Positions 3,375-60,741 of a DNA stretch of 64,000 nt are shown in pieces. Each line of letters opens with the position of its first letter. Position 1 is the first letter of the stretch. The translations under genes were made by a program, and so were the position numbers. The notes under the pieces were generated by a model that ran no database searches, was not told the origin of the DNA, and saw only the letters and a program-made list of their open reading frames with translations. The stretch is from Tubiluchus corallicola (lineage: Eukaryota; Animalia; Priapulida): contig JAQGDQ010000109.1 of NCBI GenBank assembly GCA_030141605.1, positions 186,001-250,000 on the forward strand, given 5' to 3'.

Positions 3375-3654
3375 AGTAATGTATTAGGGATTATTACTTT
3401 TATTTGGCCAAGCTTCTATTGTTACTCCAGATAATTCGACAAACAGCTATATAAGAGCTATCATCATCGGTTGGCTTTGTGTAGTTTCGGCAATTAAAAA
3501 TAACGTTTTAGTTAACTTAAAAATGTGATTTCGTAAACGCAAGATGCGAAAAGGTCCATCTTTAAAGCGAAAGACAACATTATAAGAAATGTAGGTGTAG
3601 GAGCGAAGAAGTGTGTTTATAATATAGGAGATGCGGGTAGAAAAGTTGAAATTA

Positions 3655-3975
<321 letters not shown>

Positions 3976-18600: not shown

Positions 18601-19835
18601 TTTTTTTCTTGATTAGCCAAATTTTAAGCATTTTGGTGGAAGTTTTTGTTGTCCAGTGTTAAAGGGCATTAAAGTGTTCTATCTTACTTCACTAAACTCC
18701 TCTATGGTGAAATTCGTCTGGTCGAGGAGTGCAGGAATGAACGCCACTAAAAAGAATTACTCTAAATGTTACACTGTAAGTCACTTGAAAGCCTTAAAAT
18801 AAAAAACGAAAATATAACACATAAAATGGCAGTGGGCAGTAAAGAACTAATAACATTGAGATTCATGTTGAGAATCTATAGCAATCAAATCAGTATGCTT
18901 TTCATACACGTTTGTAAAGCGCGTATTGCTTAAAAACTTGACGAAAATTTTGTTGTGTTGCGCTAAAGCATAGCCGTAACTCAAGTACTGTTGAGAGCCA
19001 AGTCCCAGTTACATTTATTTATGGTACATCATGATGGTGAGTTTTTTTTCAATTGGGACATGTCACTTCAAAGGAATTGTCTCATTGAGGAGATCAAAAT
19101 ATGAAGTTATTTTTGTTGCCCATGCATACATGTATATATGCAGACATAAAAAATTTAATGTTACATTTGTGGAACTACAATTAAAATTGACAGTGCTTGA
19201 TCCTGAACCGGACAAACCATGGCAGGAATTACTGGAAAATTCTATAATACTATTATGCTAGCTTTTGTGACAGTTATCTGTTTGGTCTCTTCAAAAACTG
19301 CTTAACTTATTGCATTGACAATTCATTTCCAGGTTTTCAAGGAGAATTACCTGATGGACGACATATGCGTGTAGAAAATAAAAACTTCTACTTTGATATA
19401 GGATCAAATCATCGAGGAGTATACATGCGTATCTCAGAGGTAATTTATCTAAATATATTACTTTTCTACGAACACGTTTTTTGTGTTTATAACATTGGTA
19501 AATTTATAAAAAAATTCTTAATCTGCACTATTATTTGTTTTTTAAGCCTTGAGAAGAGTTTTAGAATGTACTCATATATATTTTCACAATTTTATTAACA
19601 AAGACTCTGGGGTGAATACGAAATTGTTAAACATTGTTGCTTTCACAACATTTTCTTTTTTTAGGTGAAAAATAACTTTCGCACTGCCATCACCATTCCG
19701 GAAAAGTCCTGGTCGCGATTTCGTGACATATTTGCGGATTATGTAGAGAAAATGGAAGAACAGCAAGATCAACAGGGCAAGCCCGAAGCTACGGCTGCAT
19801 CTGCAACATCCAATGGTGATGACCAACGCGAGTGA
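9672..19835 (+). CDS. PURA: Pur-alpha family ssDNA/RNA-binding protein (three PUR repeats), 264 aa, 7 exons
   Basis: Exons 9672-9723, 10871-10992, 14047-14149, 14932-15050, 18246-18366, 19333-19439, 19665-19835; all GT-AG and frame-consistent, 795 nt. [10 protein letters not shown] start, [100 protein letters not shown]. Confidence 0.95.
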
Positions 19836-24708: not shown

Positions 24709-27700
24709 ATGAGATTTCGATTCATTTCTGTACGTTTTCTAATGACGTTTTTATCACGGCGTTTGAGTGTTGCCTCTTTGCTACTGGTGTTAGGGACACT
24801 TGCATTACTTACTCTCAACTATCATCAAACAAGAAGGGTAAGCCTACACATCTTAGTAAAATGTGCTTGCATATACTGCAAATAATGAAAATGGTGGTAT
24901 CTATAATGTTATTTTTCTCTTATTCCAGTACGTATAGTACTAATAATGAACGATGGAAAAGAATCATGTGTGGTATTGTCACCTTGATTGTAAGGGTGGC
25001 GACACAGTTTTGTTGCTGACTCGAGCCCGAAAAAATGCTAATTCATGCAATTGTTGAAGAGGGCTGTACAAAAATAGTGAAAATGCAGAGTTTACGCTGA
25101 TCTGTTTTTAAACAATCGGTTTGAACTGTTGACAATAAGCAGTAATTGTGCTTCTTTCGGCTAGTCGATCTGAAATTGTTGTGTTTAAATCAAACTGGCC
25201 ATGAAAATATTTCTGGCTATAATGGGCAATTTAAAAATTATTATCACATAACGAAAACAACCGCAGCAGTTAGTACTTCATATGTTAACAAATTAGATCC
25301 TAATGAGAAGAAAGGAAGCACACAAATTGCATTGCTTTTGCCAACAAATCTGACAATGTGTTCAGTGCCGGATTTTGCTAGCTAGTTATGGATGACCTGT
25401 TATTAGGCCTACTGGGTGACCACCGAGGGAATTGTTATAGACCACAGTCATATCTGCAGTGTTTTTACTGCACAAAAGAGTTTACAACTACAATAATTAA
25501 AGTCTAATTTATTTGTCCTACGTACTAGAATCGTTTGGTTCACACCGTTACATTAAAAAAGAATTCTTACATACCGCTGTACTTCATTTCTGTAATTGAA
25601 TTAGAAAGACCGTTTTATATAATTCGTGGTTCCTAGTTACACATTCATTAGAATTCCACTGTTCTGACGATAAACAACTGTTTAATTGATAATTATTGTG
25701 ATTTGTGTAAGTTGAGGACCTGTTTTTGCGGCTCACATAAGAAAACGAAAAAAATAGATTTGTGATAAATTTTTGCGCAGTTTACATACTAAGTTAAAAA
25801 ATTTGCAAGAGAGTTGATGTACTAATCTGTCACTTACAGATTGACAAAGTTGTAGAAGAGGCAGGAGCTGATGTAGATAGTTTTAATTACTTGGAAGCCA
25901 GGAAAAGGCAGCAGCTTGTGCAAGGTACCAAGTCAGCTGTCTCACTCGATTTACAGAAACTTGTATTTCACAATGAAGAAGACGCACCGACCATAGCTGT
26001 GGACCTCACAGAAAAAGTCAATCACAGCGGTGTGTCTAAAATAAGTCGATCAGCAAGTGATATTAGAGGCAGACTTCAAGAAGTCATAAGGAAACCGAAA
26101 CCTCACTATTTGGGACAGGACACTTCTACTTTCAAAAATAGTTATCATTATAATTACCAGAGAATTAATTATCCACAATTACAGAATACCGATGGATATC
26201 AGATCAATGTACCTAGAAACGTCCCGAGTACGACGTCGCAATTAGAAGCGTTTAAAACTTTCCAGAAGGTTGATCCAGCAGTTTACAGTGAAAAATGGAT
26301 CGTAATAACTAGTATCCATAGACCTACCGCCGATGTGAAACAACTGTCTTCTATAGCAGGTTGGAAGGTGGTAGTAGTGGGCGACAGAAAGACGCCACCA
26401 GATTGGAGGTACGTTTTAAGCCTGTATTGAAATTCTTCTTAGATGTGCCTTGACGGAACTATTAAATTATTACATTTAATTTACATTGTTACATTTATTA
26501 CATTAGTACAAATTATTGCATTTATATTACTACGTAAGACATCCGGAATGTGTTATGCGTTATGCGTATGCAAGCGCGTATAAACAATCTAAGAGGAATA
26601 GTTGTGGAAAAAATAACGCCATAACGCTGGTCTGATAAACGGATGCATCAAAAACAATACAAAGTGATTTTGCGCAATAACGCTTTCCGGATGTCTTGTA
26701 AACGCCGCTTTCATGGATCCCACAACTGTTGTGATGAAGACGTTAAAATGAATTCTAAAAGCTCACTAATCGCTCCGGCATTTCTAAGTGTCAGTAAACT
26801 GTTAAAATATTAAACTTAACATAATGAACTTAACATTGCAATTCTCTATTTAATTAGTTATTCGTTATCATTATAAAACTAAAATAAGTGTACAGCGCTT
26901 TGTAAATTTCCTTAATTTTCTTTGCAGCGTCAAGTTCGTTTTTGTACTCCATGTTTCGTGAACCTCCAAAATCTGTTATTTTGTGCAAAGAAACTTCTAA
27001 ACAAAAAATGAATTTTTTGTACACTAAACTGAATAACCTTAACCTTATTTAGTCAAAAAATTATGTCCTTTCAATGAATGTAGCAATGATGTACTAAGAG
27101 GTGTTTCATATTTTCCTTTTATCAATAATATCGCCATTGATCGCTGCTGCTACGCCTACTACTGTGTTGCTGTTGCTCACATTATTATTGAAATATTATT
27201 TTTAAAGTCACTTGTATTTTTAATTTTTCATCTTTACATTTACAGTTACCCAAACTGTGTATACCTTAGTGTTGAGAAGCAGATGAATCTTGGTTACAAC
27301 ATAATCCAGTCGTTACCTTGGAATAGTTATTCTCGAAAAAATATTGGCTACCTCTATGCCATACAGGTAAATGGAGAGTCGGCACTTTGTTAATAGGCCT
27401 TGTTGCTTAACCGTCCTTTTTTACGTTGAAGTCACTTCTTATTGAACACGCGATCTTTTGCTTGAGTTCTCCAAAAATAGCACAGCTTTGAAGATTAACA
27501 TTTTTGAAAAGCACGTTTACGTGACAAGTAGACAGTTAACGTTTTTCTTAAGTGCCAACGTACTTTAACTGAATTATATGCTTTTTTGCAGCATGGAGCC
27601 AAATATATATTTGATACTGACGATGACAATCACCCAACAGATGGTTTGCGGGGATTCGTTTACAATGATACTATGTCTGGCTTGGTTTATGCATCGAATC

Positions 27701-29472
27701 AAGGCGGGCAACCAGCTCGCGAAGTAAATCCGTATGCACATTTCGGTCAACCAAGCGTTTGGCCGCGTGGTTACCCACTGGACAAAATAGCATCTAACAT
27801 GACCAGGCTGTATCACAAGTGCCAGATGAAGACCCCGAGTATCCAGCAAGGTGTGGTCAATGGCGACCCTGACGTTGATGCCATTTTCAGATTGACAAGA
27901 AAAAACGAGCACGTCACTTTGAACTTAACGTTTGACAAAACTGCACCATCAGTAGTAATACCTTTTCAAACGTATTCACCGTTTAATTCCCAAAACACAC
28001 TGTATCATTACTCGGCATTCTGGGGTTTGTTGCTGCCTTTCACAACGCCGTTTCGAGTGTGTGACATTTGGAGAGGATACTGGGCGAAAAGACTAATGGA
28101 AGAATTAGATGATACAATAGGATTCGTGGGGCCTAACTGTTTCCAGTTCAGGAATTCGCATTCGTACTTTGATGACGCCGTGGATGAAGAAGATTTATAT
28201 TACAAGAGCACCAAACTCGTGGACCTGCTGAGGTCATTCCGGTGTGCATCCAGCAGATTCTATGATTGTGTCTTGCAGTTGACTGAGATTATGGCCAGGG
28301 CAGATATGTGGAAGGCTGGTGACGTCACGTTAGTTAAGGCCTGGCTAGCTGATCTCAATTTTGTGGGGTATGCGCCTCCACAGAAAAAACGTCGTCGTGA
28401 TTTTATTTGTGACTCAAAAGATTTAAATGGCGTAGAGGTGCAGTTTTATCCGGTGCCACAAGTGACAACTAACATAAATTCAGTGAAAGCAGTCAAAGAA
28501 CTGCAAAACTGGTTCACTGTTAAATCTGTTGAGACTCGTCTGTGCCCAGAATTTATTCCAAAAACAGCAAACTCAAAAACAGAAGTTATCTTCGATGATA
28601 TTTTGTTAATTGTTGTGTTTAATCGATATCACTTTGATGTTATACCTGTGCTGGAAACTTTGTATCGACCCCACTTCCCAAACATTCTGTACTGCGGGGA
28701 GTTTCTTCCAAACAAAACCTTCAACGGTACAGAGTTTTCATTTTATGCCGTGCCAAATATGGGCTTGTACGGACACTACGCATACGAGTGTATGATGGGA
28801 GCGGTCACCATGGGTTATGCCGTTTCTGGCTACCTCCTAATCAACGATGACGTTCGACTAAATATATGGAACCTGCATGGTTTTGATAGGACACGATTGA
28901 TGTTTGAGGATACAAGCCACCAAGTCGCGGACGTTAGCAATGGCTTCATTTGTCGCAAAGATAATATAGAAGTATGCGATGTGCCGCACAAACACAAATG
29001 GTTAAAAATTTATAAGAAACAAGTCTACTCCACTCTAGTTACGCTCAAAAATAACACGCTCAATACTTTGTACAATACGTGCTACAAAAATCTAGTCAAG
29101 TATAACAAAGGTGAATACAAAATAAATTTTAAGGTTTCTGACGTGTATTATATTCCCACTGAATTTGCTCAGAAATTTTATCAGCTTGCTACGGTCTTTC
29201 GAGAAGGACCAGTTTTTGTCGGTTTAGCCGTTCCAACGATAATCCGATGTCTGGACAATCCAGATAACGTTCAACATCTAAACCACCTTTTCTTGTGGAC
29301 AGATAGGGAGGAGGGCGCTGCATGGACACGTTGGAAAGAGAGTCAAACTTATCACTCCTTTCATCCATATAAGCTCAGTCCATTGTTAGTTGGTGAGCAA
29401 AACAATGTGAAACATTTCTGTAAAGATGTTTTGCCCATGTTTTACTCTTACAGACCATATTATTGGAGGTGA
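24709..29472 (+). CDS. STELLO/DUF288-like glycosyltransferase-like type II membrane protein, about 899 aa, 4 exons
   Basis: Exons 24709-24837 (N-terminal hydrophobic anchor), 25840-26408, 27246-27366, 27592-29472; frame-consistent, 2700 nt. STELLO-type motifs: KWIVITSI, WKVVVVGDRKTPPDW, NSYSRKNIGYLYAIQHGAKYIFDTDDDN, NPYAHFGQPSVWPRGYPL, QGVVNGDPDVDAIFRL, PFNSQNT, RVCDIWRGYW, and C-terminal GYLLINDDV. The exact start ATG is less certain. Confidence 0.88.
26536..26697. mobile_element. Small MITE (possibly PIF/Harbinger-type) in STELLO-like intron 2
   Basis: Inverted ends AAGACATCCGGAATGTGTTAT and ATAACGCTTTCCGGATGTCTT (19/21). TAA on the left and TTG on the right could be a degraded TWA target site. 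Confidence 0.65.
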
Positions 29473-30993: not shown

Positions 30994-33900
30994 ATGGCTG
31001 ACTTAAGAATTATTGGCTTGTTGTGTTTTTGTGCTTTAAGTGCTGTGGTACAAGCCGACGATCCAAATTATGTTATAGGAGCAGGAATATACGATATAAC
31101 TGGTCCTGCAGGAAGTATCCCAATGGTAACATCCGCCCAGCCATATTACCTTTTGATGTGATAATAAAAGTAGATAAGCATTAATTCAGTTTAATGATGA
31201 GTTTTGTCAGAAAGTTTAATATTATCACTTTTTTAACAAATATTCTAACATTCATCGGCATTTATGCTGTTTCTGGTTGTAAAATTAACTTTCAAAACAA
31301 TTAAAACTTGAAAATTATGTTGATGCACGTTTCTTGGTTTATAAGCTGCCTGTACGTAGACTATTTCAATACTTTCGTTTTAAGTAAAGCTCGCAGAGTT
31401 ATTGCATTATTTAATTATGCTAACGCCGCTTAAGGTTTTCTCTAAAATTCAGTTGAATATTTTTTACAAATAAATTCCTAATGTAGTCTTTTGAAAAAAC
31501 TATGCCAATTTTATTATTGCGAATTTGCATTTGCGATTCGTGTAAATGTTGGCAATATAGGTTTGATTCAATTACACCAAACCACATCTATTTTATTATA
31601 TTGCAAACAGTCCAGAATTGCAGATTTAATGCTCTAAATAATGTATACGTATAGATGGGTTTTGCTAGACTATCCATGACCACACAAGGAATACACCAGC
31701 GCCTATACGCAAGAGCATTCGTTATTGCAGAGATCACAAATCCCAGTCAGCGAGCAGTGTTTGTTAGTTGTGATATAGGCATGGCTTCGCAGCTTGTTAC
31801 TATTGAGGTAGGTCCGCATCTTGATTAAATAAATTGGTCATAAGGAACATCAGTTTTTTGAATGACTTGTGAGAAAACTAATAGTAATATGTACGATCTA
31901 TTACATACTACATGGAAAGTGGCAATTGGTAAAGCCCATAAATCAATGACTTTGTCATAGTTAGTTCATGCACCGTTTGGTAAAGTTTTCTAAGTAGTAA
32001 ACTATATTTAATTTACTGTATTTCTTTGTTTCAACGACTGTACACATGGCTGCTACTGAGCTACTACTACATCCTGCCCAACATTACTGAACAAATTATC
32101 AATTTCTGTTGACTATATATTCAGGTAATGAGTAAAATACAGAGGTAAAATATAAAGACAGTTTTGCCATACCAATAATGAACAAATCTGGTTTACCTTT
32201 AGTTTCACTTAAAGCAGGTTCATAAAGCAGCAATATCACAGTCTGTAATATTTTTCATCTTTGCAAAATAACTTAGTACTTTACGTACATGATATTGTTT
32301 TTGGTATGCTATTATTTTTCTTATTAATAAATGTATTTATGTATGATTTATATGTTTATCTGTAACCAAAACAAAACAAAACAAAACAAAATCCTTTGTT
32401 TGCTATTTTGCCCGAAAGTAACATGTTCTCTCCTACCATGCAAATTAAATTGTTCGGTTAAGTAAATTTAAGTATAAGATTAGTTCTGCAATTTTCAGTT
32501 CGTACGCACTTCATATCTGTGCAAAAAAAAAACCGAATACCCCAAACCGTCAGTTTTTGCTCTTTAGTTCTACAGAGCCAATTAACAAAATTCAATATAG
32601 GTTATTTCAGTACTTCGAAACAATGTGTCGCAAGATCAGGATAAGGCAATTCTTCTTTCCAAACTGTCAGCGACCTTACAGAAAAAGAATAAATTATAAC
32701 AAAAATGGAAAGCATAAATTGTATACGCGCATTTCCTTGTTCATTCAGGTGATGAGTAAACTGAAAGTAAGATTTGGTGGTCTTTACACGGAGAACAATG
32801 TCATAATTAGTGGCACGCATACACATTCTGGACCTGGAGGCTACCTTCAGTATGCTCTGTATGCTATATCTGTACTGGGATTTCTACCTGAATCGTTTGA
32901 TGTAATTGTTGATGGTATTGTTGAGGTACGTCTCTAATTCGCCACCTTTTAGGAAAAAAGTTGCAAAAGAAAATTTACAGAGCACAACCATTTTTAAGTA
33001 TTACTTGGTGACTCGTTTACCGACACATCATTACTGTCATCGACATCATCACGTCATCACATCGTCGTCGTCGTCGTCGTCACCATGATCAACATTCATC
33101 TTTTTACTTTTATTAATATGTATAGTCACCTTCTATTAAATTTCTTCAAGTCTGTTGCAGTATTTAGATTGGTAAACATTTAGATGGACAAATATTTAGG
33201 CAAAGCAATGGCAAAGTTTTAGGTATAATTGCTTTTCGTATCTCCCAACTTAGTGGTTCCCCTTAGAGGACTCACCTTACTAGTGACGTAGATTCTGGCC
33301 CTACCAGAGCCATCTACATCAAGTAGACCTTGCGGTGAGAGCTGCATATCGATTTGCAGGATGTCAAACGGATTACAGAATTGAAAAGATCCGATTTAAG
33401 AGTCATTTCAAAATTTGCACAAGATCAACCTTATCGTACATTTTTATTTAGCGTTTAATCATTAAATATTAAATTAAGAATGAAAATCATTGCTTGAGAA
33501 TAGTTCATTTAGTTTAGATACACAAAGGCAGAAAAGCAACGCCACAAAGAAGAAGAAACTGAAAATCTTATATTGGATCAAATAAATTACATTTTGATTT
33601 GAATTTAATTGCAAACGAAACCACTTTTTTGCAGAGCATTGCATTGGCACATAGTAACATGCAGCCTGGTTACCTTTACATAAATCAAGGAGAGTTGTAC
33701 GGCACTAATATTAATAGGAGCCCAACTTCCTACCTGCGCAATCCTCAAGAAGAAAGGGCAAGGTATTGATGCAGGAAAAATACATACGAATTGTGCTGAG
33801 ATTCTTAGTATTAAAATTCTTATTAAAAATGTTTAGTATTCGTATTAAAAATCTTTTTAGTACGACTGGATTACATCGGATGGCCAGAAAAAAACTTTCC

Positions 33901-35183
33901 TTGATATGAAGTTGAATAACTTTAGCTATTCAAATCTTGAAAGCTGTACAGTCTGCATGAAAGCAGCCGTATGTCTGTTAATGATGCAAATTTTGGAAAT
34001 CTAAGTGCCACAGTTTCATCGCAGCAAAAAATAAAGAAAAAAAAACAATTAGAAGGAGCATGTCGGAGACAAGGATGACATTTGCCAGCCAGTATGTTCG
34101 TAGGTTTGATAAAGCTGGACATTGCATTTTTTGGGCCTAGATTACTCAAGAGATTTAGAGATTTTAAGGCTTTTGTAGTCACCAAAATGATAACTGGCTA
34201 CTTTGGAATGTCCATCCAATCCATCCAAGACAAAAAGACATTTATTGTAAATAAACTCATGGAGAAAATTAAGAGAGCAAGCCGCCTCTCTTTTAGGAAG
34301 AAGTGACTGAGAATGGAAAGATGTTAAATTTGTTTAAATACACTGATTTCATATGTTTTAATAAATTTTTCCTGGCACATCATTTTTGAAACATAGTTGT
34401 TTTTTACAATTGATTCTTGAAGCGGCATTTACAAACGTGAGAAAAACTCCAGTTACTGGATATTGAATCATATAAAGTTTTTCTGGGTGTATGGTACAAA
34501 CACACAACACATACAAAACTAACGTGACATACGGTTTCATTATTTCGTTATATAATATGTATATTTTGTGCACCTCTCTCTGATAATTATTTTTAAAGAC
34601 CCGAAAGACTTAATTCATTGTACTACGACCAGCACGATCAGCAAAAATCAGACAAGCAGTCTTAGCAAATTTTTGAAGCAAACGAATATATACAGCTACA
34701 ATCAATACAGCTAGTAATCAGTGCAGATGACTAATAGGTATACAGGTATGTCAGTAAAATGTTGACGCCAAGAAAAGACCATGCATGTCTTACGTTAATT
34801 CTGTTTTTAGGTATGAATTTGACACAGACAAAACAATGTGGATCTTGAAAATGGTAGATGCGAATAATCAAGGAATTGGACTTATAACGTATGTACGGTT
34901 TTGTTGTATCTTGACCGACATTGTTTAAGACTGTGAAGAAGTTTAATGTTAATACCAGTATTAAACAAACCTGAATGAATTCAGGTATAAGTCCGCGAGC
35001 GTAACGCCGCTAGTGTGTTTACACCTGATTATACCTGGTCGAGTGTTGTTTGGTTTTTATAATTACCTCAAAGCAGACGATAAGAGGAGACCAATATCTC
35101 AAATTTCCAGCATAAATGTGGCTAAGTGCGTGCGTGCGTGCGTGCGCGTGTGTGTGTGCGCGCGCGCGCGCGTGCGTGCGTGC

Positions 35184-35225
<42 letters not shown>

Positions 35226-38200
35226 AGATTATTACGCCGAAGCACTTGACGATGCTCGTGAGTAATTTGAAATTTATTTTTGGGGTTGTATAATTTTCAC
35301 ATTTTGGCTTCTGTCTCGGATTTGTAAACAAACCTTGGGAAATTACTGATACACGCTTCAGTTAGCTGCACAATACCCCTAAATTTTTTTAATTATTTCT
35401 CATAATAGTCCAGTTGCAGAGTAACTAATAGTATTGTGACCTACTCTGTTACCATTTTTTACAAACTCCATTGATGTCTTAGTACACTTATAACATATTA
35501 CATATTACGAACTATATGTAATAGATATCTATTATCAAGATACAAACCAAAGATGTGTATCCCAAAGCCGTAAAACAATGAAATGTGGATAATAAGTAAA
35601 TTACATGCAAACCCTTTTCATTAGATGGTTTGCTGTTCATCCGGTCAGCATGAACAACACCAATCATGTAATTAGCGGCGACAACAAAGGATACGCGTCA
35701 TATCTGTTTGAAAAGAAAATGAATCCCGAAGATTTACCTGGAAAGGTAAGGAGCTCCTTGGAGCCAATAAGCAACAAATTAACTATTTTTTATACTAGTG
35801 ACATTTTAAAGATTTGAGATAGTGTTGATTTGTTGCTTAAACTTGGAGAATGATGGATGAAATATTGGCATAACTATGAAAAATAAATAATCTTTTAGGT
35901 AGCCTTTTGATAGCGATTCACTTCGTTTTACGTTACCTGATGACAGAAGTTGAAACGTCGTTTAAAAGTTATTATGAAGTTTTTTTTAAATAAATTTGTC
36001 TAGGCTGCCTGACATCATTTATTACAGTTAAGTGATAAATTTAATAAAGATCATTAATGAAGATTATTAATAAAACGTCATTTCAGGGAAAATTCGTGGC
36101 TGCTTTTGCGTCGTCTAATTTGGGTGACGTTAGTCCAAATACTCGAGGACCAAGATGTCAGGATACAGGCGAGTTTTGCGATATGTTTGAAAGCACGTGT
36201 AATGGCCGTGTAAGTGTTTACTGGAATTATATAATCATCATTATTTAAAAACGTTTTCACTAGATTTCCACGCTTCTTAACAGACGGGGGATACGCAGTC
36301 TGACGTACAAGACAGTGTGAAGACATGTAAAACATTGGCTTGCTTTTGCTTTGTTATTTGTTTCCTTCAAACTTTTATTTGCTTGCTGTAGCTTATATGA
36401 AGTACAAGAATAATACACGCGTCAAGTGAATCGTGGCAACTTAGATTTTCTCGTTTCAATTTTAGAATCAACTCTGCATTGCATCTGGACCGGGGAAAGA
36501 CATGACTGAGAGCACAGAAATTATTGGGGCTAATCAGTTTCGGAAAGCGTGGGAGTTGTGGAGTGACGCCACTCAGCGGCTGACAGGAAAAGTTGATTTC
36601 CGACATCAGTTTATCGATATGACTTCGGTTGATGTTACTTACAAAAATGGAATGCAGGTACAAATCAAAATTTAGAACTGTAGACACCCAAAAAATGAGT
36701 GGGGACCACATATTTTCCCTTACATGAAGTTAAGTAGTTCTTTTTATTCGACAGCGAGATATGTAAGCAATGAGCGACAAAATAATGGGAAGCTAAAATT
36801 CACGGCTCGCTTATTTGTCAATTTATAAATTAATTTGTTTTTACTTGTTCGTTTATCGGTTTAATTTTATTTATTTATATTCGTGCAGCACCAGTGGCGG
36901 CTCGTAGCTAAAATTAGTGAGGTGCTGCTTCAGACATTTTTAGCCATTGTTTTAATACTGTGCAAAACGAAACAAACGTGTAATTTTAATGTTGTAATTG
37001 TAATTTTAAACAAACAAACATACGAAAGTTTATACATAAATTTGATAAAATCCTAAATAATTTTTTTTTGCTTACTAGAAAACCTAAAATTGTCACAGTT
37101 TAAGCTTGATCCATTCAAGGTGAGCACGTGACAACTGACAACAAACTGTGTGTGCGACAGTACTTCCTCTACCTGGGCTCAAACATGTGCATATTGCCGT
37201 ATGCGCACAACAGCCAAACACCTCGTTGCCGGAGCGCACTGTGTTGGGCTGTGAAGCAAACAGTACAGCTCTCACGTGCTCTGGTTCCGTACAAGTAAAA
37301 AGAAAGAACTAAAGAAAAAAGACTTATTATATTGAATATTATCGATAATATTGAATGTAAATAGGGGGTTCTGCAATTCCACAATACCTATACACGAGCC
37401 GCCACTGATCAGCACACGTTTAAGGCCCATGGTTTTCCACTCATTATTTTTTCACAAAATTGTAGGGCAAAACGTGTAAACCAGCAATGGGATATAGTTT
37501 TGCTGCAGGATGTACAGATGGCGCTGGAGCGTTAAATTTTACACAAGGTTTGACGTTATAATATTAATATTTTATTGATACCTTGCCTTGAAGAGGAATT
37601 TCTTCCATATCATATTAAAATTATGCCTGCCAAAAGCTGCAATGGGTATTCGGCGATATTAAATTCCATATTGCTAGCAACTACAGGTATACCGAGTCAC
37701 AGGCAGATGAAATCTAATATCAGCACGAATCTATTGGTTTGCGTATGTAAAAATTTGATACAACAAATGTTAGGCGTTTGGGATGACGCATGATTGTATC
37801 ATGATTAAAACATAAAAAAAGTGTTTGACAAAACTAATAATTAATCGCAACTGAAGTGCACCAAACCTTGTGTAAATTTGAATTCCAGTGATCGCCTTGG
37901 AAGGGTAGATCTTGGCTTGGCCCATTTTTAAAATCAATAGATTAGTTAAAATCATGGCAATAGAACCTCATGAATATTTTTTGGAAAAAATGTTGCTTCG
38001 TCAAAGCAGATTTGCAACTGAAAAGCGAATTTAATTAAATAAACTGTTCAGTGTTTGAAGATCAATTAAAAAGCGTTTATTTGGCAGGGCAGCACATGTA
38101 AAGCTGCAATGGGGTATAGTTTCGCTGCTGGTACAACAGACGGGCCAGGAGCTTTCAATTTTTCACAAGGTTGGTCTAAATGCTCTTCGCAGCTTCTGAC

Positions 38201-41200
38201 TTCTGATGGTGACGACGATGACGTTGTGGACAATGACGATAAGAACATCGACGACGACGACGATAATTATAGCACTGACGTTGATAGCGTTCACATATAA
38301 AGTCTACTCTATGCAAGTTACTAAATCACAGTTTTTATTGATCGTTTTCCCATTTGAGCCATCTAGTCTTCTAAAGAAAGAAAGAGCTACGTTTTGCATT
38401 TAATTAGCCAAGATTAGTTGCTAAACTTCACAAATGAATTTAAAATTCATGATGATGATGACGACGACGACGACGACGACGACGAAAACGACATTCCTGA
38501 CGTTATTGGCTCGTTCTATTTAGATTAAAGCAAAACCGCACCCAATCATAAACTGTAAGTCAGAACAATCTACTCTTTAAAATATTGAAAGGAAACATAC
38601 TATTTTTTTCAAAAATGACTAACGTGAAAGAATTATTACCACACAAACACAATTTGACTGTCGCGCCACTAGTTCTTCGCTGTTACATGCATTTCGCCAT
38701 TCGCTAGTTAGACGGGCACTAGCGCCTGCATTTCGGAAACGCATTGCATAAAAAACAGATGCTGTGCCTCTCAGTTCAGATGTTAGTTTGTGACGAACTA
38801 CACACGTTCGGCAGCTCATGCGTGAGCACAGCGGTAAATTTGAAATTTGAATTTTTATTTAAAACTTGCCTAGTTTTAGTATAACACACTGAATATCTTA
38901 CAGTAGCACAGTAATTCTATTTTCTCTTTCGCGAACATCTGCAATATGCTCGTGAAAATTGTTATTTTGTGATATCATCAATAGTTGGGCCCGCCTATCG
39001 TTAATTAAGTTTTTAGTCTATTATTTAATTATCAGAAACGCTTTTGCAGTGTTAATTGTGTTAAAATGTATACTTTTTGTCGGACTTAAAAATGGGGTGG
39101 TATATGAAAAATCATCCTGTCTTTCTTTAATTAAAAAATGACCGAGAAGTGCAAAAACTGAATTAAAAGTCAGGCTGATACTATAATAGTAAGTGTAAGC
39201 GCTAATGGTTTTAAAGCTGTTGAGTTTTAAAATAGGAATGACGGAAGAAAACGAGTTTTGGTCAAACATTGTTGATACAATAAAACCTCCAACTGATGAA
39301 CTGAAGGAATGTCATGCACCCAAACCCATTTTGCTCGCAACAGGAGAGGTATGGTAAATTCTTTTTGCGATTTTTCCCCTCTCTGCTTTCCTTTCTCTTC
39401 CCTTTTTCGTTTCATTTTTCTCATCTTTGCCCACACCCAACTACCCCTTTCTTTTTTCATCTCTCATAGAAAAGTTTGCCTCCTTTTAATATTTTTACCA
39501 TAACGCTTTTTACAGGCCAACACGACTTTGAGATGGCAACCTGATATTGTAGAACTAAACATCATGAAAATTGGTCAATTAGTGATTACCGCTGTGCCCG
39601 GGGAATTTACTACGATGGCAGGAAGACGACTGCGCGAGTCAGTAACGCAGGTGACTATGGAAGTGCTGATATTGGCAGTTACAAACAAAAATAATAAATT
39701 TAACTCGCTAAAAGAAGTCAATAACAATTTTTTTCACAAAAAAGCAAAAACATTAGCCAAGATTGCTTTAAATGAGGAGTCTGTTGCCACTCTATAAAAC
39801 AAGCAAGAAGGTATGTCATTTAAAAGCATACTCGGATACATACGTTTTTTAAGATGAACGTCTATGTGCAAAGGGTAGCATTTCTGATTCAAATAGCAAC
39901 AAGTTTATTTCACATGGCTCAAGAACTGCTAATGACTGGTATCGACTAAAATATACAAACATTCATGATAACATGAAATGCACAATCGTTGGAGTTTGCT
40001 GTTAAATACATATTTTTTGTTTGTTTGATGGCTTAACCTTATCAACGGACTGACGTAGTGACATTTGGTTAATGATTTTCTTTGCTGTTACGAAAACTAG
40101 GCATATAATGACAATGCTAAGCATTGGTTTGCTTGCTTATTGAGCTTTTTCTGCCGAACTGAATGGATAGGTCATTTAGAACGCCATGTTTTGTGATTAT
40201 GGAACCCTTTTCTTCGTAAAGATGTCATTTATAACGGCTTTTATGGTCACGAAGGAATCGGTTTCATCGTTTGAATTTAGAATACGTAGTAACTTGCTTG
40301 TGTTGCCGTAAAACGTATTACATAAACAACGAGAATGGGAACAAAAATATCATTACGACGAAACAGACACCTTTATAGAGTTACTTCGCGAGCGACTAAT
40401 CCAAAAACTTTATGAGACAATATCCCAAATAAGTTTAAACCACTTTTTTATGATTATTACTTGATTATATGTTTATTTTATTTAAAAGAGCTGAATATTA
40501 TTAGTTATTTAGTAATTATTTAAATTAGCACAGAACAAAAATTATCGAAATTGTTAGGCACGGGTTTACTGGCTAGTCTCTCTTTCAATTGTCTTTCTTT
40601 CCCCCTCTCTTTCACTCTTTCTCTCTCTCTCTCGCTCGCTCGCTCACTTGTTCTTTGTGTTTCTATATACACAAGTTCTTTATTTTCTTTCACACGATAA
40701 TATTAAATACAAAAGTCTACTGTTTGTCATTTCAGACATTAATAACTCATGGTTATCCCGAGGACACGTGCGTTGTTATAGCAGGATTATCTGGCACATA
40801 TTCCAGTTACATAGTGACTTACGAAGAATACCAGGTATACATGCATGTGGATAGCTGAATGACTAGTGGACGAACGGACGAGAAGAATGATGGGAGGACG
40901 GAAGAATTAACGAATCTATACACATGATATAACGAAATTGTCAATGGTGAACTTGTATAATGAAGTACACAAGTTTAGCTTTACATTATAGCACAATAAC
41001 AGCATTAAGTTTAATTGTATTATCGAGGCAACATTTAATGCCTAAATTCCTTATTAAATAATCTGCCTATAAAAATACTGTATATAGAAACGCAAACATT
41101 ATTTCAGGCACAACGATACGAGGCTGCTTCTACCATATATGGTCCTCACACGCTGCAAGCTTACACAGAGAAGATGAATGGATTAGCTGAAGCAATGGCC

Positions 41201-43216
41201 CTAGTATGTAAATTCACTTTGTTACATTACCGATTTTCCATAACGAGTTGAGATGGTTTAGTACATTTTTTAGTACAAAGCGCTTACTTTTTTTAACTCA
41301 AAAGCGTTTAGGTAATTTCACTTAGAGTAAGCAAAATGATATCAATTTCGTAAAGTTGGGAAAACTAAATTATTGTGTTTTTTTACGTTTTTGTTAGCTA
41401 GTTGTAAGTTATACTGTATTGGTATTACGACCCAAAAATATTGCAGTAATTAGCAATAAGTACATTCTGTATTTAAGGGCGAATATGTTCCCAAAGGGCA
41501 ACTTCCACCGAATATGACCGAATATCAGCTCACAATAATCGGGCCGCCGCGGGACGATGAAGCTCCTGACGGCTTTTCTATCGGAGACGTTATATTGGAT
41601 GCAAGAGATACTTATTATCCGGTATGTTGATTATAAGTACATCGTGATTTTTTAGGTTTTTAACATTATTATCTGAATTCCTGACACATGCAGTGAAAAA
41701 ACGTGGCGTAACCGAAATTATATAAATGTAAATGTTGTCAAATTTATTTATGCAATGAGCACATATTCTTATAAAAATACATCCTACATATAAAACAATA
41801 AAATTACAATAAAAGCACTCAAGAAAAGGAGAGGATGAGGTAAAAACTTATATTTTCTTGCCCTTTTAGTTGTCATTATTTTACTCGCAAAACTAATTGT
41901 TTTTGCTCTTTTTGCATGCGTAAACGCGTGATAGATCAAAGTTTATTTAGTTTAGACCACCTCACCAAAACCAAATGCGTCTGGCAAAAGCCTGCAATTA
42001 TATTATTTTTTGTATGATTTCAGGGTGACACGATCAAAGTCAAATTTCAAGCGGGAAATCCACGGAATGACTTGATGGTAATAAAACTTTTTTCACGCAA
42101 GTTTTGTGAAATCAAGTGCATTTATAATTAAAAGCGTGTTCATGTATGATTTTTGATAGTGCTGCCCTGTACTGAGGATTAAATTTTTCAATTGCGAAAG
42201 ACGTATGAAAAGGACGAATAAACTGATCCTTCTTAATGAGATTTTTAATTTAGCACAAAACTGAGTTAAGATTAGCTAAAAATACATTTAAGTAGTTCAT
42301 CTTAGAGCAAGTAAAAAGTACTGAATTTCGGCAAGTCAGAACAACTAAAATGTAGTGATTTTTGACATCTTGTAACTATGTGTAACATTCTGTAGTAGTA
42401 CATCTTGCTGTTTGCAAATATTAGCAGGTAAAATTGTTGAATACGTTTCGTATGTAACTGGATTTTGCGGTATTATAGATCCGGATAGCACCAAAATCCA
42501 TATTCTTCCTCTATTCTTGTTTCTAGACGGAAAAGACGTTTCTTACCGTCGATTACCACCCACCAGGTAGTGCTACATCTGAAGTGGTTCTCACAGATGG
42601 TAACTGGGAAACATTGTGAGTATTTGTTTATTTTAATAATAGAATCAGTAACCAATTATAGGTAGAAATGTATATTAGTTTGCATACACAATACTTAGAT
42701 TGCAGCTGTAAAAACATTTAGCGAAATATTCAGCTTAACAGTACATTGGCTTTTCATGAAACCTGTAAAAATTGCCTTCTTAAAGATGCTTGGACCTGGA
42801 TTTTGGATTCTCTTAAAGGAACTTGGCCAAAACAAGAATATTCAATGTGGGTTCTAGCTTTTTATGATGATTTATTCAATAATTTTATTTTAGTTTACTG
42901 GGAACATACATTTGCACAGTAGCACATCAGTATAGCATTGTTAACACTTCTTTTTGTAAGGTTCGAATGGGAATTCACCACCACGCCCATCATTGGGGCA
43001 CGACAAAGTGTAGCCACAGTGACCTGGAATATACCAGAAGATGTGCAGCTAGGTGAATACTCCATCACCCACTATGGGCATCACAAATCCACCAGACTAG
43101 GACAGACAACGATAACCCCATATCAGGGGACAACGCAGAGGTTTCAAATTATAGAGCGACCAAATTATTATCTTAGATATTCGCAGTTGAAGAAGCGAGA
43201 ACTAGCGTTTATGTGA
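30994..43216 (+). CDS. ASAH2: Neutral ceramidase (ASAH2/CDase family), secreted invertebrate type, 723 aa, 17 exons with two alternative versions of exon 9
   Basis: Exons 30994-31125, 31655-31807, 32749-32925, 33635-33762, 34811-34888, 35625-35745, 36087-36209, 36466-36657, [37466-37547 or 38088-38169], 39236-39348, 39516-39650, 40736-40834, 41108-41203, 41478-41621, 42024-42077, 42527-42615, 42961-43216; 2172 nt, all GT-AG. Signal peptide and no mucin box. Motifs DITGPA, THTHSGP, NINRSP, WFAVHP, GDVSPN, PGEFTTMAGRRLR, QRYEAASTIYGPHTL, GNPRND. Confidence 0.95.
35126..35223. repeat. (GCGT)n/(GC)n/(GT)n compound microsatellite
   Basis: About 98 bp of alternating purine-pyrimidine sequence in ceramidase intron 5. 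Confidence 0.95.
36892..37407. mobile_element. hAT-type MITE (516 bp) in ceramidase intron 8
   Basis: Perfect 14-bp TIRs CAGTGGCGGCTCGT / ACGAGCCGCCACTG. Flanks TGCAGCAC and ATCAGCAC (6/8) are consistent with an 8-bp TSD. Confidence 0.8.
37466..37547 (+). CDS. ASAH2: Neutral ceramidase exon 9a (alternative copy): GKTCKPAMGYSFAAGCTDGAGALNFTQ(G)
   Basis: TGTAG acceptor, 82 nt, open frame, phase 0 to phase 1, G|GTTTGA donor. Fits in frame between exons 8 and 10. Confidence 0.85.
38088..38169 (+). CDS. ASAH2: Neutral ceramidase exon 9b (alternative copy): GSTCKAAMGYSFAAGTTDGPGAFNFSQ(G)
   Basis: GGCAG acceptor, 82 nt, same phases as exon 9a, G|GTTGGT donor. Fits in frame between exons 8 and 10. 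Confidence 0.88.
40170..40410 (+). repeat. Dispersed repeat, diverged copy 1 (copy 2 at about 57419-57680)
   Basis: Both copies share GGTCATTTAGA..., CCCTTTT..CGTAAAG, ACGAAA..A.AC..CTTT.TAGAG.TACTT.GC and an internal sub-repeat of roughly 53 bp. Confidence 0.6.
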
Positions 43217-44995: not shown

Positions 44996-47900
44996 TCATG
45001 AGAATACAACCTTTTTGAGATACTGAATAACAGGAGGATGAGTAAGAACACCCATATGGTCAATGCCAGCATACGTTCTTTCATACACTTTCTGCTTTTG
45101 TTTCCCTTGCCAATGAAGACACCCCTTCAAACTACGCATGTTCACCGTACCATCACCGTCGCCATATTTTGCAATTGGTTGGTGATCAGGAAAATTGCCA
45201 GGTGACCAGTAGAAACTTTCTGAAGTGTTGACCTTTGACCCATGCAAACAATGTACTTCAACACCAGGTGGATTATTAATATCTACCAGATCTTTGGTGT
45301 CCAGATGCATTTGATACCCATTTGGAAAGTCTATGTCAGTAAAAAACTGTTTGATGTCTTTCAGTGTGTAGTTTCGGTGCTCGTTGGTTGCTAGTATTTC
45401 ATTTTCATCCCAGAAGTTTTTGTTTGGAAGAAGAAAAGCGAGACTTGGAGATGTACGTTGTTGTGTTCTTAGTGTCAACGGATTTAAAAGGAACACGCCC
45501 AAATTTTCACCTGCAACAAAAATCATAAAAAGGAACAGAAAAGTAGGTAAATTACTTTAGCAGACTGACCAAGTACTAGACAAAAACAGCCCAATAATGA
45601 AAGTAACTGAATACATGCAAGTCCCTGTTTAACGTTGCCCAGTTTGCCTGCGGTTCATCTCAATGATGACAAGTTTCTTCTTCACTTTTAATAATGAACT
45701 GTTGATCTTACTTAAAGAATTTCAACTGTTGGCAACTGCAAAAATATGTTAAACACAGTTCTAAAAAATAAGTACTCTATAAAGGGTAAAAAGAAAATCA
45801 ATAACAATCTTTAATTTAAACTAAAGTTAAGTAAAGCTTGACAAGGGTGGTCAGCATACGGATGGGTGACTACTGACGTTAATGCTCCCTCTTGGAGTTT
45901 TTTGCTTATTACCTGATTGTAGCTGTTTACCTGTTTGAGAGAGTACGTAATTACGTATTCACATTGAAGCACATAAAGTATTTACAGTCTGTAAATTAGT
46001 ACTATTTACATAAAGTAAGATGTGCAACTGAGTTTTGCATTCCAGTTTGCACAGTGCTGAACTGCATAAAAAATATGAACAGGGAATTTGTGATTTTTGC
46101 TGCTGGAAAGCATTCTTATGCATTTATATCGTTAAGCAATCCTTGCAGATTTTTCAAGTACTTAATTTAACAATTGCAAGTCTTTGCATTGCTAGTGCAG
46201 TGTGTATGAACATTAATGATGAGCACAACTGCAAAGTTGCTGATGCTCCAAAATAATAACACTTGACGAGCTTCAGACCTTTTGCCAGTGAGCTGTCAAA
46301 ATTTTTGCTTTCTGAACTTAAGGTTTGCTGTATGCCTTATACAATAATTTCGACAAACAATGCATGCATTAATAGACTTAATTCATCTCAGGGCAACATA
46401 ATAGTAAAAGTGTTGTGAGTTACTAGCTGTTACTAAACAGTTTTTCCCCAAGGCAATAAAATGCAGTTTCCAGATTGATCGGCCTCCAGTGGTTTCAGTT
46501 AGATTATGGAAACAGCTGCCAACAAACTTATTTCTACAAGAAATTCCATGACACGTAAAGACATTAATATCAAGGTAAAAGATAAAAGAGGAGATCACGA
46601 ATGTCACTATACCTGAAGCAAATACACGGAGTGGTTTGACAGTACCACCCCAAACACCAGCAAGTGCAAATAAGGATTTAATAAATTTGTCTTTCCATGT
46701 AGCAGGTTGCAAGTTAAGGAATCTCCACATCATGGGATTGCCCATAGAATGGCAAATTAGAATCACTTTCTTGTTGCCATTTTCATAATACGTTTTTTCC
46801 ACTAGTTCTTTCATGCGATCAAAGTACGTGTTGTGCTCATCTGAAATAAGTTCTTATAATCTAAACATATTGCAAATTGATAAAATAATATTACATAAGG
46901 TCAACTAATAAAAGCAGTTCATTAATGCATTAGTACAAGGAAGGTGTTTTCTGAAATAATTCCAAAAGTAACGTAACAAATGAGACATGCTATTACAGTA
47001 ACATCCAGCCAAGACTAGCAAGGGATCTGCATTGAATATAAGTACCCACACATATGATTTTTAATACTGAACAATTTTAATACACGCACAATAAAAGAAA
47101 AATAACGACAAAGAAGATGATATATAAGATACGATGAATTTGCTTTTATTTTAATTTCCTTTTTGGTCATCACAAGTAGTTAAAAGTTAGGAATAGTGTG
47201 GCGTAACACGCTAACTATGTGGCAAAATAGCATCTAAACCATGAGGAATGTGACATTACTCAAACATAATGTGTAAACAAACTGAAGAAAACCTTCTTAT
47301 AGTAGTATATAAATGTTCCCAATAACTATAAGCCCGATACTTACTTGGTGCTCTACGAAAATCATAAGGGGCACCACGAATGTTGACGCCCCTAGTATAA
47401 CCCCATGAGACTAGTGCTTCCACGATTTTGATAAAATATAATCCTTAAAAAAATGTATAATGTTCAAACACAATACATATTCATAAAGATTTTTTATAGA
47501 AGTCAGTTAAGGCCTGAATTTGATTTAAAACAGCCGAATATGATCAATTTCTTTCTTGCACTAATATGGAAATTTTAGAGGTATAAATTGCACATCGAAT
47601 AATATCGGAGAATGCAAAATGTGAACTGATTATTATTATGTATTCAGAATTTCTCTTTGAGTATTTACAGGTCTATTCTAATGAACTTATCGAATGAAAG
47701 TGCTTACATTTTACTGAAAAAAATTTGGCAAGCCATTAATCAATGTTAAGCTCAGCATATCAAACAGCAATCATGAAACGTGTTACCTGGCGATGCCTGA
47801 CTAGGATCAAGCCACTCAACGGTACTGGTGTTTCCGAAACCAGGTATTCTGATATCTACACCAGAAGGCGAGTAGCTTGTGTGTGTTACATTATCATACA

Positions 47901-58429: not shown

Positions 58430-59778
58430 TCTCCAAAAACCATGACGGATTAAATCAACAGAGAAACATTTACGGGAGACAAGATCCCCTTACACAAGGG
58501 CCTAATATTATTAGGCTAGCAGCACTATTGTGTTACTAGTGATAATCCCTTTAGGTCATAGACAGCCTGTTGCTTTCAAACTAAGCATTACATGTACATG
58601 TATAAGCCTACTTAATTCAAACATTTCGAATCAACTGTTTTGCAACTGATGCTGGGATCCTCCCAGCGATCACTCATAACAATCCAGCCTGCAAATTAAA
58701 ATCATAAAAGTTATAAGGAATTTTGTAAACGTTGGTTATGACGTTGAAATGTTTGTAAGCAGTTAAAAGAATGCACAGATTTTTAATTACTATGTTCACT
58801 TATCTTCACAAGAACAATCAAAAATGTCTGGCAGCATCACATGCTTCACTAGCAGACAAACTAAATACATGATAATAAAAAATCAGCAGCTTTACAACAC
58901 CTTGAGAGTTCCAAACCTTCTGTTGATCGATGTGCTGATGATAGTGACATTATTTGACTGCACAACATCGGAAAGTTTATTTAATCTATTAAAAACCAAG
59001 TGTTGAACAAAAATATGAAATGTTATCTGTTGGAATTGTTAAATAACAATTGAGTCTTTCCCGTTTGGATTTCTTTCATTGTATCGATCTAGAATGTTTT
59101 TGGTTTAAATTTTTAATAGTTTATTAATGAGTAGACAATTGTAGGATTAAGTGTTTAGACAGAGCATAGTGGATGACGTCATAATGATCTCAAGGATCAT
59201 AATTATAGCTTTCTTAGTGTTAATCGCAAAAAAAGAATGTGGAACTTTCCTATTCTTCTGGGCTCTTGTGAAGGTGTCTATATAAAAGAAGTCCACTTCG
59301 TCTATATAACCTTGTTCTTTACAAAGAGCCATGAAATTTTTTGTAAGCCCTCTGCGAAGGACCTGTACAATGGCTTTTTTGTGTGTATAGAGTTTGACGC
59401 GTTTCTAGTCCTTCGTAATTGTCTTGGAGGGAATTCCATAGCTCTTTGGAAAAAGTAAAAATTGTGTTACAAGGAACTGTCTTGTTTAGAAATTACTTCA
59501 GCCAAGCCAGATAACTAAGACGCACATGCACTTCTGAGATTGATAAATTTGATTATTGGTTATCCTCGGTCATATCATAAGAACTTATTATGTGAATGTA
59601 AATAAGACCTGCAATGTGTGCATGAGAATGTGCGAATTATGGGATTCATATAAATTATTGGTCATATTTAAAAGAAATAGTCAATTAGCTTTGGATTTGC
59701 AAGTCTACAGTGAAAGTAAAAAGTTTCGTACCGCGTACCCAAATGAATCTAATGACTACACATTTGTTTGTGTGTGAC

Positions 59779-60741
59779 ATGTCGTTCTTGTTTCACGCAT
59801 GCCTGATTGCACGTATCCTAGCTTCTACAGTGAATATAAGTTCATTTGACAAATTTGTAAGAGTACTGACTCCTGAAAATATAAGTGAAAATGGTAAGGC
59901 AAGAATTAGTGGTGGAACAGAAGTTGCTGGAAGGGAATTTCCGTTCATAATTGGGATTCTTTTTAAACAAGGTGGGGGTTTTTGTGGAGGATCTCTCATT
60001 GATAACCTATGGGTATTAACTGCAGCTCATTGTCTTCATGATGTCGAGAAACCGGGAAAACACCTAAATATATATCTCGGAAGTAACATTAAATATGAGC
60101 CACTAGTAGCTCGTTATATTTACTGGTATAAGATTCATCCAATGTTCAACATGAGTAACAGAGAATGGTGGAACCATGACATTGCTCTTGTGCGAATGAA
60201 CGAGTCTGTAGAGTTTACCAATGAAATTAAACCTGCTACAATGCCTGCTCGTGCCAAATATACCTTCATTGATGAAGAGGTCACCATCACAGGATGGGGA
60301 CGTCGAGAGTCACCACCATTTGTCCAACGTCGTTTGATGAAGGCGTTGTTAAGAGTTTCCACTGAAGGTGATTGTTATTTGTTTAACAAGACGCTTTTTT
60401 TCTGCGCACATCATCCATTTAGGAGGAGTACTCCAGGTGATTCAGGTGGACCCATGATATTAACCAAAACAGGAGAGTTGATTGGTGTTATTAGCAGCGG
60501 CACGGGCTACTGCGATCCCTCGACAGGACATTGCTATGGTACTAATGAAACTGTGAATTCTGCTGTAAACATTTCTCATTATTTAGAGTGGATTGATTAT
60601 GAACGTTCAAAATTCGAGAACGAATCTGCATCTGTCACAGTTACATCTGTGCCTGACACTGCTCCAGTACAAGGCATGACGATGATAACTTGTATGATTA
60701 CTCTCTCTTCTGGATTGTCTTTCACTGGCGTTTACTTCTGA
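59779..60741 (+). CDS. Intronless S1A (chymotrypsin-fold) serine protease with signal peptide, R|ISGG activation site and hydrophobic C-terminal tail
   Basis: Single ORF with CGGSLI, LTAAHC, HDIALV, TGWG and GDSGGP. The ATG at 59779 precedes the hydrophobic MSFLFHACLIARILAS; in-frame ATGs at 59743 and 59752 are alternative starts. Confidence 0.9.
   Translation: MSFLFHACLIARILASTVNISSFDKFVRVLTPENISENGKARISGGTEVAGREFPFIIGILFKQGGGFCGGSLIDNLWVLTAAHCLHDVEKPGKHLNIYLGSNIKYEPLVARYIYWYKIHPMFNMSNREWWNHDIALVRMNESVEFTNEIKPATMPARAKYTFIDEEVTITGWGRRESPPFVQRRLMKALLRVSTEGDCYLFNKTLFFCAHHPFRRSTPGDSGGPMILTKTGELIGVISSGTGYCDPSTGHCYGTNETVNSAVNISHYLEWIDYERSKFENESASVTVTSVPDTAPVQGMTMITCMITLSSGLSFTGVYF

Follow-up and report, generated by a model that had tools for sequence, protein, structure and literature searches.

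In the human ATE1 gene, the R3 element that lies between the tandem homologous exons 7a and 7b competes for the R1 and R4 elements, obstructing one or the other of two 3' splice sites; this switch is conserved across vertebrates and proven by mutagenesis (PMC7797038). In docking site/selector systems, including Dscam exon 6, 14-3-3zeta, Mhc and srp, alternative pairings also compete for one shared element; in the examples described, the dock is located upstream or downstream of the exon cluster and its pairing activates the chosen exon (PMC6071210, PMC10790352). Their origin is attributed to duplication of one arm of a hairpin (PMC6071210), a step that would by itself create competing pairings. 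A local hairpin across the 5' splice site blocks tau exon 10 and SMN2 exon 7, which are single cassette exons with no shared element that toggles two donors (PMC10790352). In tandem exon duplication-derived substitutions, homologous exons of equal length exchange a short segment of protein (PMC8373072, PMC9741552).

The stretch of Tubiluchus corallicola DNA that was analyzed, hereafter the window, is 64 kb in length and includes a neutral ceramidase gene in which two homologous exons of equal length, 9a and 9b, would likewise exchange a short protein segment. What is new at this locus is an intronic element between the copies, M, that is complementary to both donors. As in ATE1, the tandem homologous exons are accompanied by one inter-exon element that is complementary to homologous sites at both, and a single pairing at a time is predicted to hide one splice site. 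In contrast to ATE1, in which 3' splice sites are controlled via intronic R1 and R4, M is directed at the ends of the exons together with their 5' splice sites, so that its targets are partly coding; the ceramidase locus is thereby predicted from folding to be a donor-side mirror image of the ATE1 switch. Whereas the latter has been proven by mutagenesis, the ceramidase toggle is a good prediction from sequence and folding. The competition for one shared element resembles that in docking site/selector systems, but M, unlike their docks, sits between the two exons and, according to the prediction, acts as a repressor that covers a donor. The origin of the arrangement is compatible with the model of one-arm duplication (PMC6071210). 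Exons 9a and 9b each have a predicted local donor hairpin, as in tau exon 10 and SMN2 exon 7. No example of a donor-side dock was found in the literature searched, with most subscription papers outside that search. The initial annotation of this DNA knew of no mutually exclusive exon pair in neutral ceramidases and the search likewise found none in the accessible texts; in the human tandem-exon supplement of PMC8373072, ASAH2 occurs 0 times and ATE1 10 times.

The evidence moderately favors a model in which the exon pair is spliced mutually exclusively into a standard (9b) or a variant (9a) enzyme, enforced by M covering either donor. Exon anatomy, frame logic, selection and complementarity are read from the DNA, and the two states and anti-cooperative donor opening are predictions of folding.

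A duplicated exon in a neutral ceramidase gene

The ceramidase open reading frame extends from an ATG at 30994 to a stop codon at 43214-43216 and specifies 723 amino acids per isoform (Table 1), with an N-terminus that is hydrophobic and signal-peptide-like in appearance. When exons were compared individually with Pfam, PF04734 was matched by 7/7 of the N-terminal exons tested and PF17048 by the last exon; exon 9a alone scored 31.4 bits against PF04734, slightly below the whole-protein cut-off of 32.1. The protein shares its domains and catalytic residues with human ASAH2 (PDB 4WGK) and with the Pseudomonas enzyme (2ZWS/2ZXC). The catalytic and metal-site residues (H119, H121, R182, H228, S279, E463, Y503 and Y515) and the cysteine pair (C372 and C421) all are present. 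The comparison included human H194, H303 and E540, which are further catalytic or metal-site residues. Residue numbering was transferred with an offset of +98 from the 4WGK alignment and was checked on C448, C498, Y579 and Y591. The other human residues compared were H196, R257, S354, Y579, Y591 and the C448-C498 pair, as given in a review (PMC6952831). All catalytic residues are encoded by shared exons and none by exon 9. Judged by its domains and catalytic residues, the gene is a neutral/alkaline non-lysosomal ceramidase. In a tree of 55 proteins built with FastTree, its sister was XP_014661394.1 of Priapulus caudatus, with support of 100 and 58% identity. A homologue search with exon 8 retrieved 2 distant proteins only.

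Table 1. Positions of features in the 64-kb window, numbered from its first nucleotide.
Feature	Position	Strand	Remarks
Neutral ceramidase gene	30994..43216	+	17 coding exon slots, slot 9 doubled; tblastn matches and splice sites
Exon 8	36466..36657	+	Upstream of exon pair; phase-0 donor
Exon 9a	37466..37547	+	Variant copy; Cys384, Ala388, Leu391
9a 3' end and donor	37519..37557	+	Predicted partner of M, -36.9 kcal/mol
Element P	37630..37655	+	14-nt exact copy of part of 9b; predicted P:Q pairing, -21.9; weakly supported
Element M	37857..37897 (core 37862-37882)	+	Antisense to exon end and donor of both 9a and 9b; predicted competing dock
Exon 9b	38088..38169	+	Family-consensus copy; Thr384, Pro388, Phe391
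9b 3' end and donor	38141..38176	+	Second predicted partner of M, -28.3 kcal/mol
Element Q	38173..38199	+	Directly behind 9b donor; complementary to P; weakly supported
Exon 10	39236..39348	+	Downstream of exon pair
Two-pore potassium channel exon	3652..3975	-	Pfam Ion_trans_2
Pur-alpha family gene exon	19248..19598	+	PF04845
STELLO-type glycosyltransferase long exon	27532..29472	+	646-aa frame
LCAT/lysosomal phospholipase A2 family gene	44996..46853	-	Pfam; tail to tail with ceramidase
Trypsin-family protease	59689..60741	+	Apparently single-exon

Other genes in the window are included in Table 1. The best named matches of the STELLO-type exon were three Priapulus proteins at 52-53%, compared to 38% for the next named protein, and the neighborhood of the STELLO and ceramidase genes appears to be conserved, being syntenic in Priapulus. 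Some members of the LCAT/lysosomal phospholipase A2 family acylate ceramide-like lipids and two lipid enzymes therefore adjoin at the ceramidase locus. Joints that resemble introns of the LCAT/lysosomal phospholipase A2 gene were seen in a read run, X2, that is RNA by guess only. The potassium channel exon is taken to be TASK-like.

The initial annotation described two 82-nt exons flanked by AG and GT and separated by 540 nt, with identity at 63/82 nucleotides and 21/27 amino acids, eight synonymous codon differences and six substitutions between 9a and 9b (K/S, P/A, C/T, A/P, L/F and T/S). Each of these particulars was confirmed in the sequence. The one-or-other logic proposed for the pair also holds at the protein level: 9a alone or 9b alone gives the full-length product of 723 amino acids, whereas inclusion of both exons leads to a stop at amino acid 400 (TAA, 38099-38101) and skipping of both to a stop at amino acid 370 (TGA, 39239-39241). 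The reading frame thus makes the two exons mutually exclusive at the level of protein. The copies display the equal length, shared phase, homology and intact splice sites by which mutually exclusive exons are recognized.

Similarity between 9a and 9b ends at the exon edges and the flanking introns are no longer alike in blastn and repeat searches. As the introns lack similarity, the duplication is old and a duplicate arising from haplotype assembly is unlikely; an assembly duplicate was rejected on this basis. Neither a third copy of exon 9 nor any other doubled ceramidase exon was detected within the 64-kb window. A cryptic acceptor lies 5 nt inside 9b and a GT is situated 4 nt beyond its donor, which would delimit an 81-nt piece (38093-38173); both sites are weak-looking. 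The introns on either side of the pair contain high-copy interspersed repeats at 36890-37410 and 38550-39130 with deep coverage in read run X1. The 14-nt inverted ends of the first (36892-36905 and 37394-37407) suggest a MITE. Reads of X1, which are genomic-DNA-like (~99% identity), contained no spliced joints here, and X2 provided spliced-looking pieces elsewhere in the stretch with zero coverage of exons 8-10. The reads of both runs have no bearing either way on the splicing of 9a and 9b.

The initial annotation also suggested that both copies are under purifying selection. In a pairwise comparison across 27 codons, dN was 0.148 and dS was 1.0, yielding a ratio of 0.15 (Fisher p = 3.7e-4). 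Decay of a neutral copy was simulated in 20,000 runs, with an expected branch length of about 0.5 (dS/2). Splice sites, frame and 10 near-invariant residues survived jointly in 2% of runs at a branch length of 0.15, in 0.17% at 0.25 and in no more than 0.01% at lengths of at least 0.4. Both exons retain intact sites, the frame and all 10 of these residues despite a dS of 1.0. The pairwise ratio and the simulation together support purifying selection on both copies and make it unlikely that 9a is a long-dead copy. The three changes in 9a fall at sites where 118, 117 and 118 of 121 homologues agree, a pattern that could alternatively be read as decay. Overall the exon pair is real and probably functional, and exon 9a is very likely to be used.

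An intronic element complementary to two donor regions

Element M does not figure in the initial annotation and was found here by repeat search. Its core is complementary at 19/21 positions to the 9a donor and the 16 nt of exon that precede it, and at 17/19 positions to the equivalent place in 9b; G-U pairs and bulges lengthen the element beyond the core to the limits in Table 1. When exons were scored against neighboring introns for Watson-Crick complementarity, the values for 9a and 9b were 15 and 13, respectively, compared to 6-10 for the other 32 of 34 pairs. Dinucleotide shuffles equaled these scores in 1/3000 and 9/3000 cases. The donor-window duplexes of 9a (-36.9 kcal/mol) and 9b (-35.0 kcal/mol) were the strongest two of 34, and in an energy test on shorter, 28-nt windows shuffles matched 9a:M in 2/2000 cases and 9b:M in 43/2000. 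The 9b:M match is not independent of the 9a:M match because the exon ends are homologous. A search of 36400-39400 against Rfam gave 0 matches.

Short inverted repeats are commoner in the real window than in shuffles. A complement score of at least 15 occurred in 5 of 622 windows, that of M included, and a score of at least 13 in 12 of 622, two of which involve M. Duplex energies of -36.9 kcal/mol or lower were obtained in 5 of 705 windows. The prior for a chance inverted repeat is near ~0.6% per window, and lower for one that falls on a donor. The strongest short inverted repeat in the window, with a score of 27, is located near 8875-9500.

At the Leu/Phe codon M follows 9b, whereas at the Thr/Ser codon and around Ala388 it follows 9a. 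As it matches each copy at different diagnostic sites, it is an exact copy of neither present-day exon. It may have originated long ago as an inverted copy of the exon end, or may have adapted to both exons, and would have been kept while the synonymous sites diverged. Both donors of the pair read AAG|GTT, and T at donor position +3 is confined to 9a and 9b among the 17 ceramidase donors. Third codon positions are conserved at 3/3 places in the paired region compared to 9/17 outside it, a sample too small to count.

An unlikely reading of these data is that both exons are used singly and M is a chance inverted micro-duplication, with exclusivity arising from weak donors, splicing factors and nonsense-mediated decay. 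The reading frame alone already yields exclusivity at the protein level, four other windows among the 622 furnish an inverted-repeat background of the same grade, and an inverted copy of one exon end automatically pairs with its twin. However, M falls on a donor and has stayed complementary to both exon ends to the extent given above despite a dS of 1.0, its diagnostic matches are divided between the two copies, and the coupling of the donors in folding calculations is dependent on M.

Predicted folding and the proposed splicing choice

The segment at 37440-38230 folded better than all 20 shuffles (z -3.1). In the unconstrained ensemble at 37 C, the probability of the 9a:M pairing was 0.61, that of M:9b was 0.30 and that of P:Q was 0.31; the best two predicted structures were 1.4 kcal/mol apart. 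The M:9b state comes together with a P:Q helix (37634-37640 with 38189-38195) enclosing 9b. At 20 C the balance shifted to 0.84 for 9a:M versus 0.06 for M:9b. The two pairings are predicted to exclude each other, to be of similar stability and to be temperature-sensitive.

Forcing both U1 sites open cost 4.1 to 4.7 kcal/mol beyond the summed single costs in three windows. This coupling of the donors dropped to 0.0-0.3 kcal/mol in 4/4 scrambles of M, and remained at 2.0-5.9 kcal/mol in three controls in which an unrelated stretch was scrambled and at 2.3-5.8 kcal/mol when P was scrambled three times. Among other consecutive donor pairs of the gene, coupling ranged from -5.4 to +1.2 (eight computed; seven pairs skipped for length). 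The costs of opening a single donor were near-equal, 6.8-7.4 versus 8.0-8.1 kcal/mol. When free of M, the 9a donor is predicted to form a local 13-bp hairpin (37528-37557, -10.5 kcal/mol) and the 9b donor a local hairpin of -2.5 kcal/mol; the two hairpins are distinguished by an A-U to C-G exchange at donor position +4, a single case that proves little. The freed donor is still largely paired in the model, with an unpaired probability of 0.03-0.21 across all states. Because local hairpins form on donors released from M, neither donor is predicted to be open at equilibrium.

By energy, neither P nor Q stands clearly above chance, with shuffles reaching the observed values in 109/2000 and 377/2000 cases, respectively. 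Q also has weaker complementarity (-17.9) to positions 38100-38118 of exon 9b. A hairpin of Q with exon 9b was rejected as part of the 9b state at an ensemble probability of 0.0 and a cost of 7.5 kcal/mol. P also was rejected as a decayed third exon: only 14 nt of it are homologous, and tblastn found nothing there.

In the proposed mechanism, pairing of M with the 9a donor would lead to use of 9b, and pairing of M with the 9b donor would loop out 9b, with the P:Q helix closing the loop, and lead to use of 9a. M is transcribed ~310 nt after the 9a donor. If U1 snRNP were not yet bound there, M would capture the 9a donor, which makes 9b the likely default. If the 9a donor were already committed, M would be free to capture the 9b donor. 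The ratio of 9a to 9b would be set by the timing of U1 binding relative to transcription of M, together with refolding, and nonsense-mediated decay would remove transcripts with both exons or neither. If true, the locus offers a compact (800-nt) and easily tested case in which the choice of exon depends on a shared element covering either of two donors, a layout otherwise shown only for acceptors in the accessible literature.

The same predictions bear on the possibility, considered distinctly unlikely, that 9a is recently silenced or nearly silent, with M and the local hairpin shutting its donor and protein produced from 9b only. M pairs more strongly with 9a than with 9b (-36.9 versus -28.3 kcal/mol), the local hairpin is the more stable on 9a, the 9a-masked state dominates at 20 C and 9a departs from consensus at three conserved sites. 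Nevertheless, the splice sites, frame and all near-invariant residues of 9a are intact at a dS of 1.0, the single-donor opening costs are similar, and the pair of Cys and Ala residues that 9a encodes is maintained in whole genes of other organisms. Two further routes to exclusivity were rejected. Steric or distant-branch-point exclusivity of the OGDH 4a/4b type is at odds with an intron of 540 nt and an AG-free zone before 9b of only 12 nt. Incompatibility of U2 and U12 spliceosomes, assessed with the U12-type donor consensus, is at odds with the identical AAG|GTT donors, which have no U12-like run.

The variable protein segment and its Cys/Ala form

Exon 9 covers residues 445-471 of the human enzyme in the 4WGK alignment, a span that takes in Cys448 and the initial 21 residues of the eta2 loop-alpha8 element. 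Cys384, Ala388 and Leu391 of 9a correspond to human T460, V464 and L467, respectively. The initial annotation placed the segment in a conserved block that may lie near the substrate pocket. Four of the six differences are inside the eta2 loop-alpha8 element (human Ala451-Ile487), which is placed differently in the human and bacterial enzymes according to a review (PMC6952831). This element reportedly lines the pocket.

At the three conserved sites, 9b matches the consensus (Thr, Pro and Phe), in place of which 9a has Cys, Ala and Leu; the three changes particular to 9b affect more variable positions. The annotated orthologue of Priapulus caudatus, a single protein model, has Thr, Pro and Phe as in 9b. 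Among 296 motif matches in 308 proteins, Cys occupied the first site in 24 cases, none of which had Pro four residues on (22 Ala, 1 His and 1 Thr), whereas Thr at this site was accompanied by Pro in 246/269. The Cys/Ala counts are inflated, as 18/24 come from Daphnia, in two clusters, and 9a served as the query in assembling part of the set. In the tree of 55 proteins, which retains the segment columns and has a midpoint root and a weak backbone, Cys/Ala forms lie beside Thr/Pro sisters at three places with support of 99-100: the ceramidase described here, Daphnia and the ostracod Darwinula. The placement of a fourth Cys/Ala form was not resolved. In Daphnia species, one contig bears both a Thr/Pro and a Cys/Ala gene, whose accessions are adjacent, as for tandem paralogues. 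The two types exist as whole genes in Daphnia and as two exons of one gene in Tubiluchus corallicola. The recurrence of the Cys/Ala pair in other lineages argues for 9a as a functional variant.

The AlphaFold model of a Daphnia Cys/Ala protein matches 4WGK with TM values of 0.91-0.92, and its confidence is 72-78 at residues 381-410 compared to a mean of 93. In this lower-confidence loop, the Cys and Ala residues lie in short bridges on either side of a two-residue turn. Bridges that flank one turn fit a coupled change of the two residues. The Cys, Ala and Leu residues of 9a would reshape the eta2 loop-alpha8 element and are likely to modulate access of the substrate, or the rate, rather than catalysis as such.

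From these comparisons, a functional difference between the 9a and 9b enzymes is likely, and altered substrate access is the best guess for its nature; a distinct lipid preference of the isoforms is less sure than either the exon pair or the toggle. It is very improbable that both isoforms are made, are enzymatically near-equivalent and form a pair that serves dosage control, for example with double inclusion or skipping coupled to decay: the out-of-frame products do end mid-gene, the catalytic residues all lie outside exon 9, and vertebrate enzymes have a non-Pro residue and often a Leu at two of the differing sites, but the Cys and Ala changes have appeared jointly in separate lineages, which in Daphnia also retain a paralogue of the consensus type, and M is predicted to oppose double inclusion. 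The mutually exclusive model extends to a broader and tentative proposal, itself somewhat doubtful, that a single antisense element toggles two donors so that one gene makes both of the Daphnia ceramidase types, with repeatedly evolved tuning of a pocket loop and different lipid preference. If this were true, the substitution pair at human T460/V464 would have been made several times by evolution, in one case through duplication of an exon and in another through duplication of a gene, and would offer a ready experiment on the determinants of substrate preference in neutral ceramidases.

A metagenome scan for the Cys/Ala pattern recovered 17 loci, of which 14 were without a ceramidase match and 3 were ceramidases that are Daphnia-like by sequence, with one segment copy each in 1.3-2.8 kb. 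Three proteins with two segment copies (P0188, P0189 and P0051) were rejected as single-exon pairs, as larger blocks are repeated; P0188 and P0051 are named plant proteins. In Daphnia, the Cys/Ala paralogue departs from its counterpart near other conserved motifs as well. Examples are His-Leu in place of His-Cys, and Ala-Gly-Ser in place of Gly-Ala-Ser after the catalytic Tyr. The paralogue is a candidate for a ceramidase of shifted specificity.
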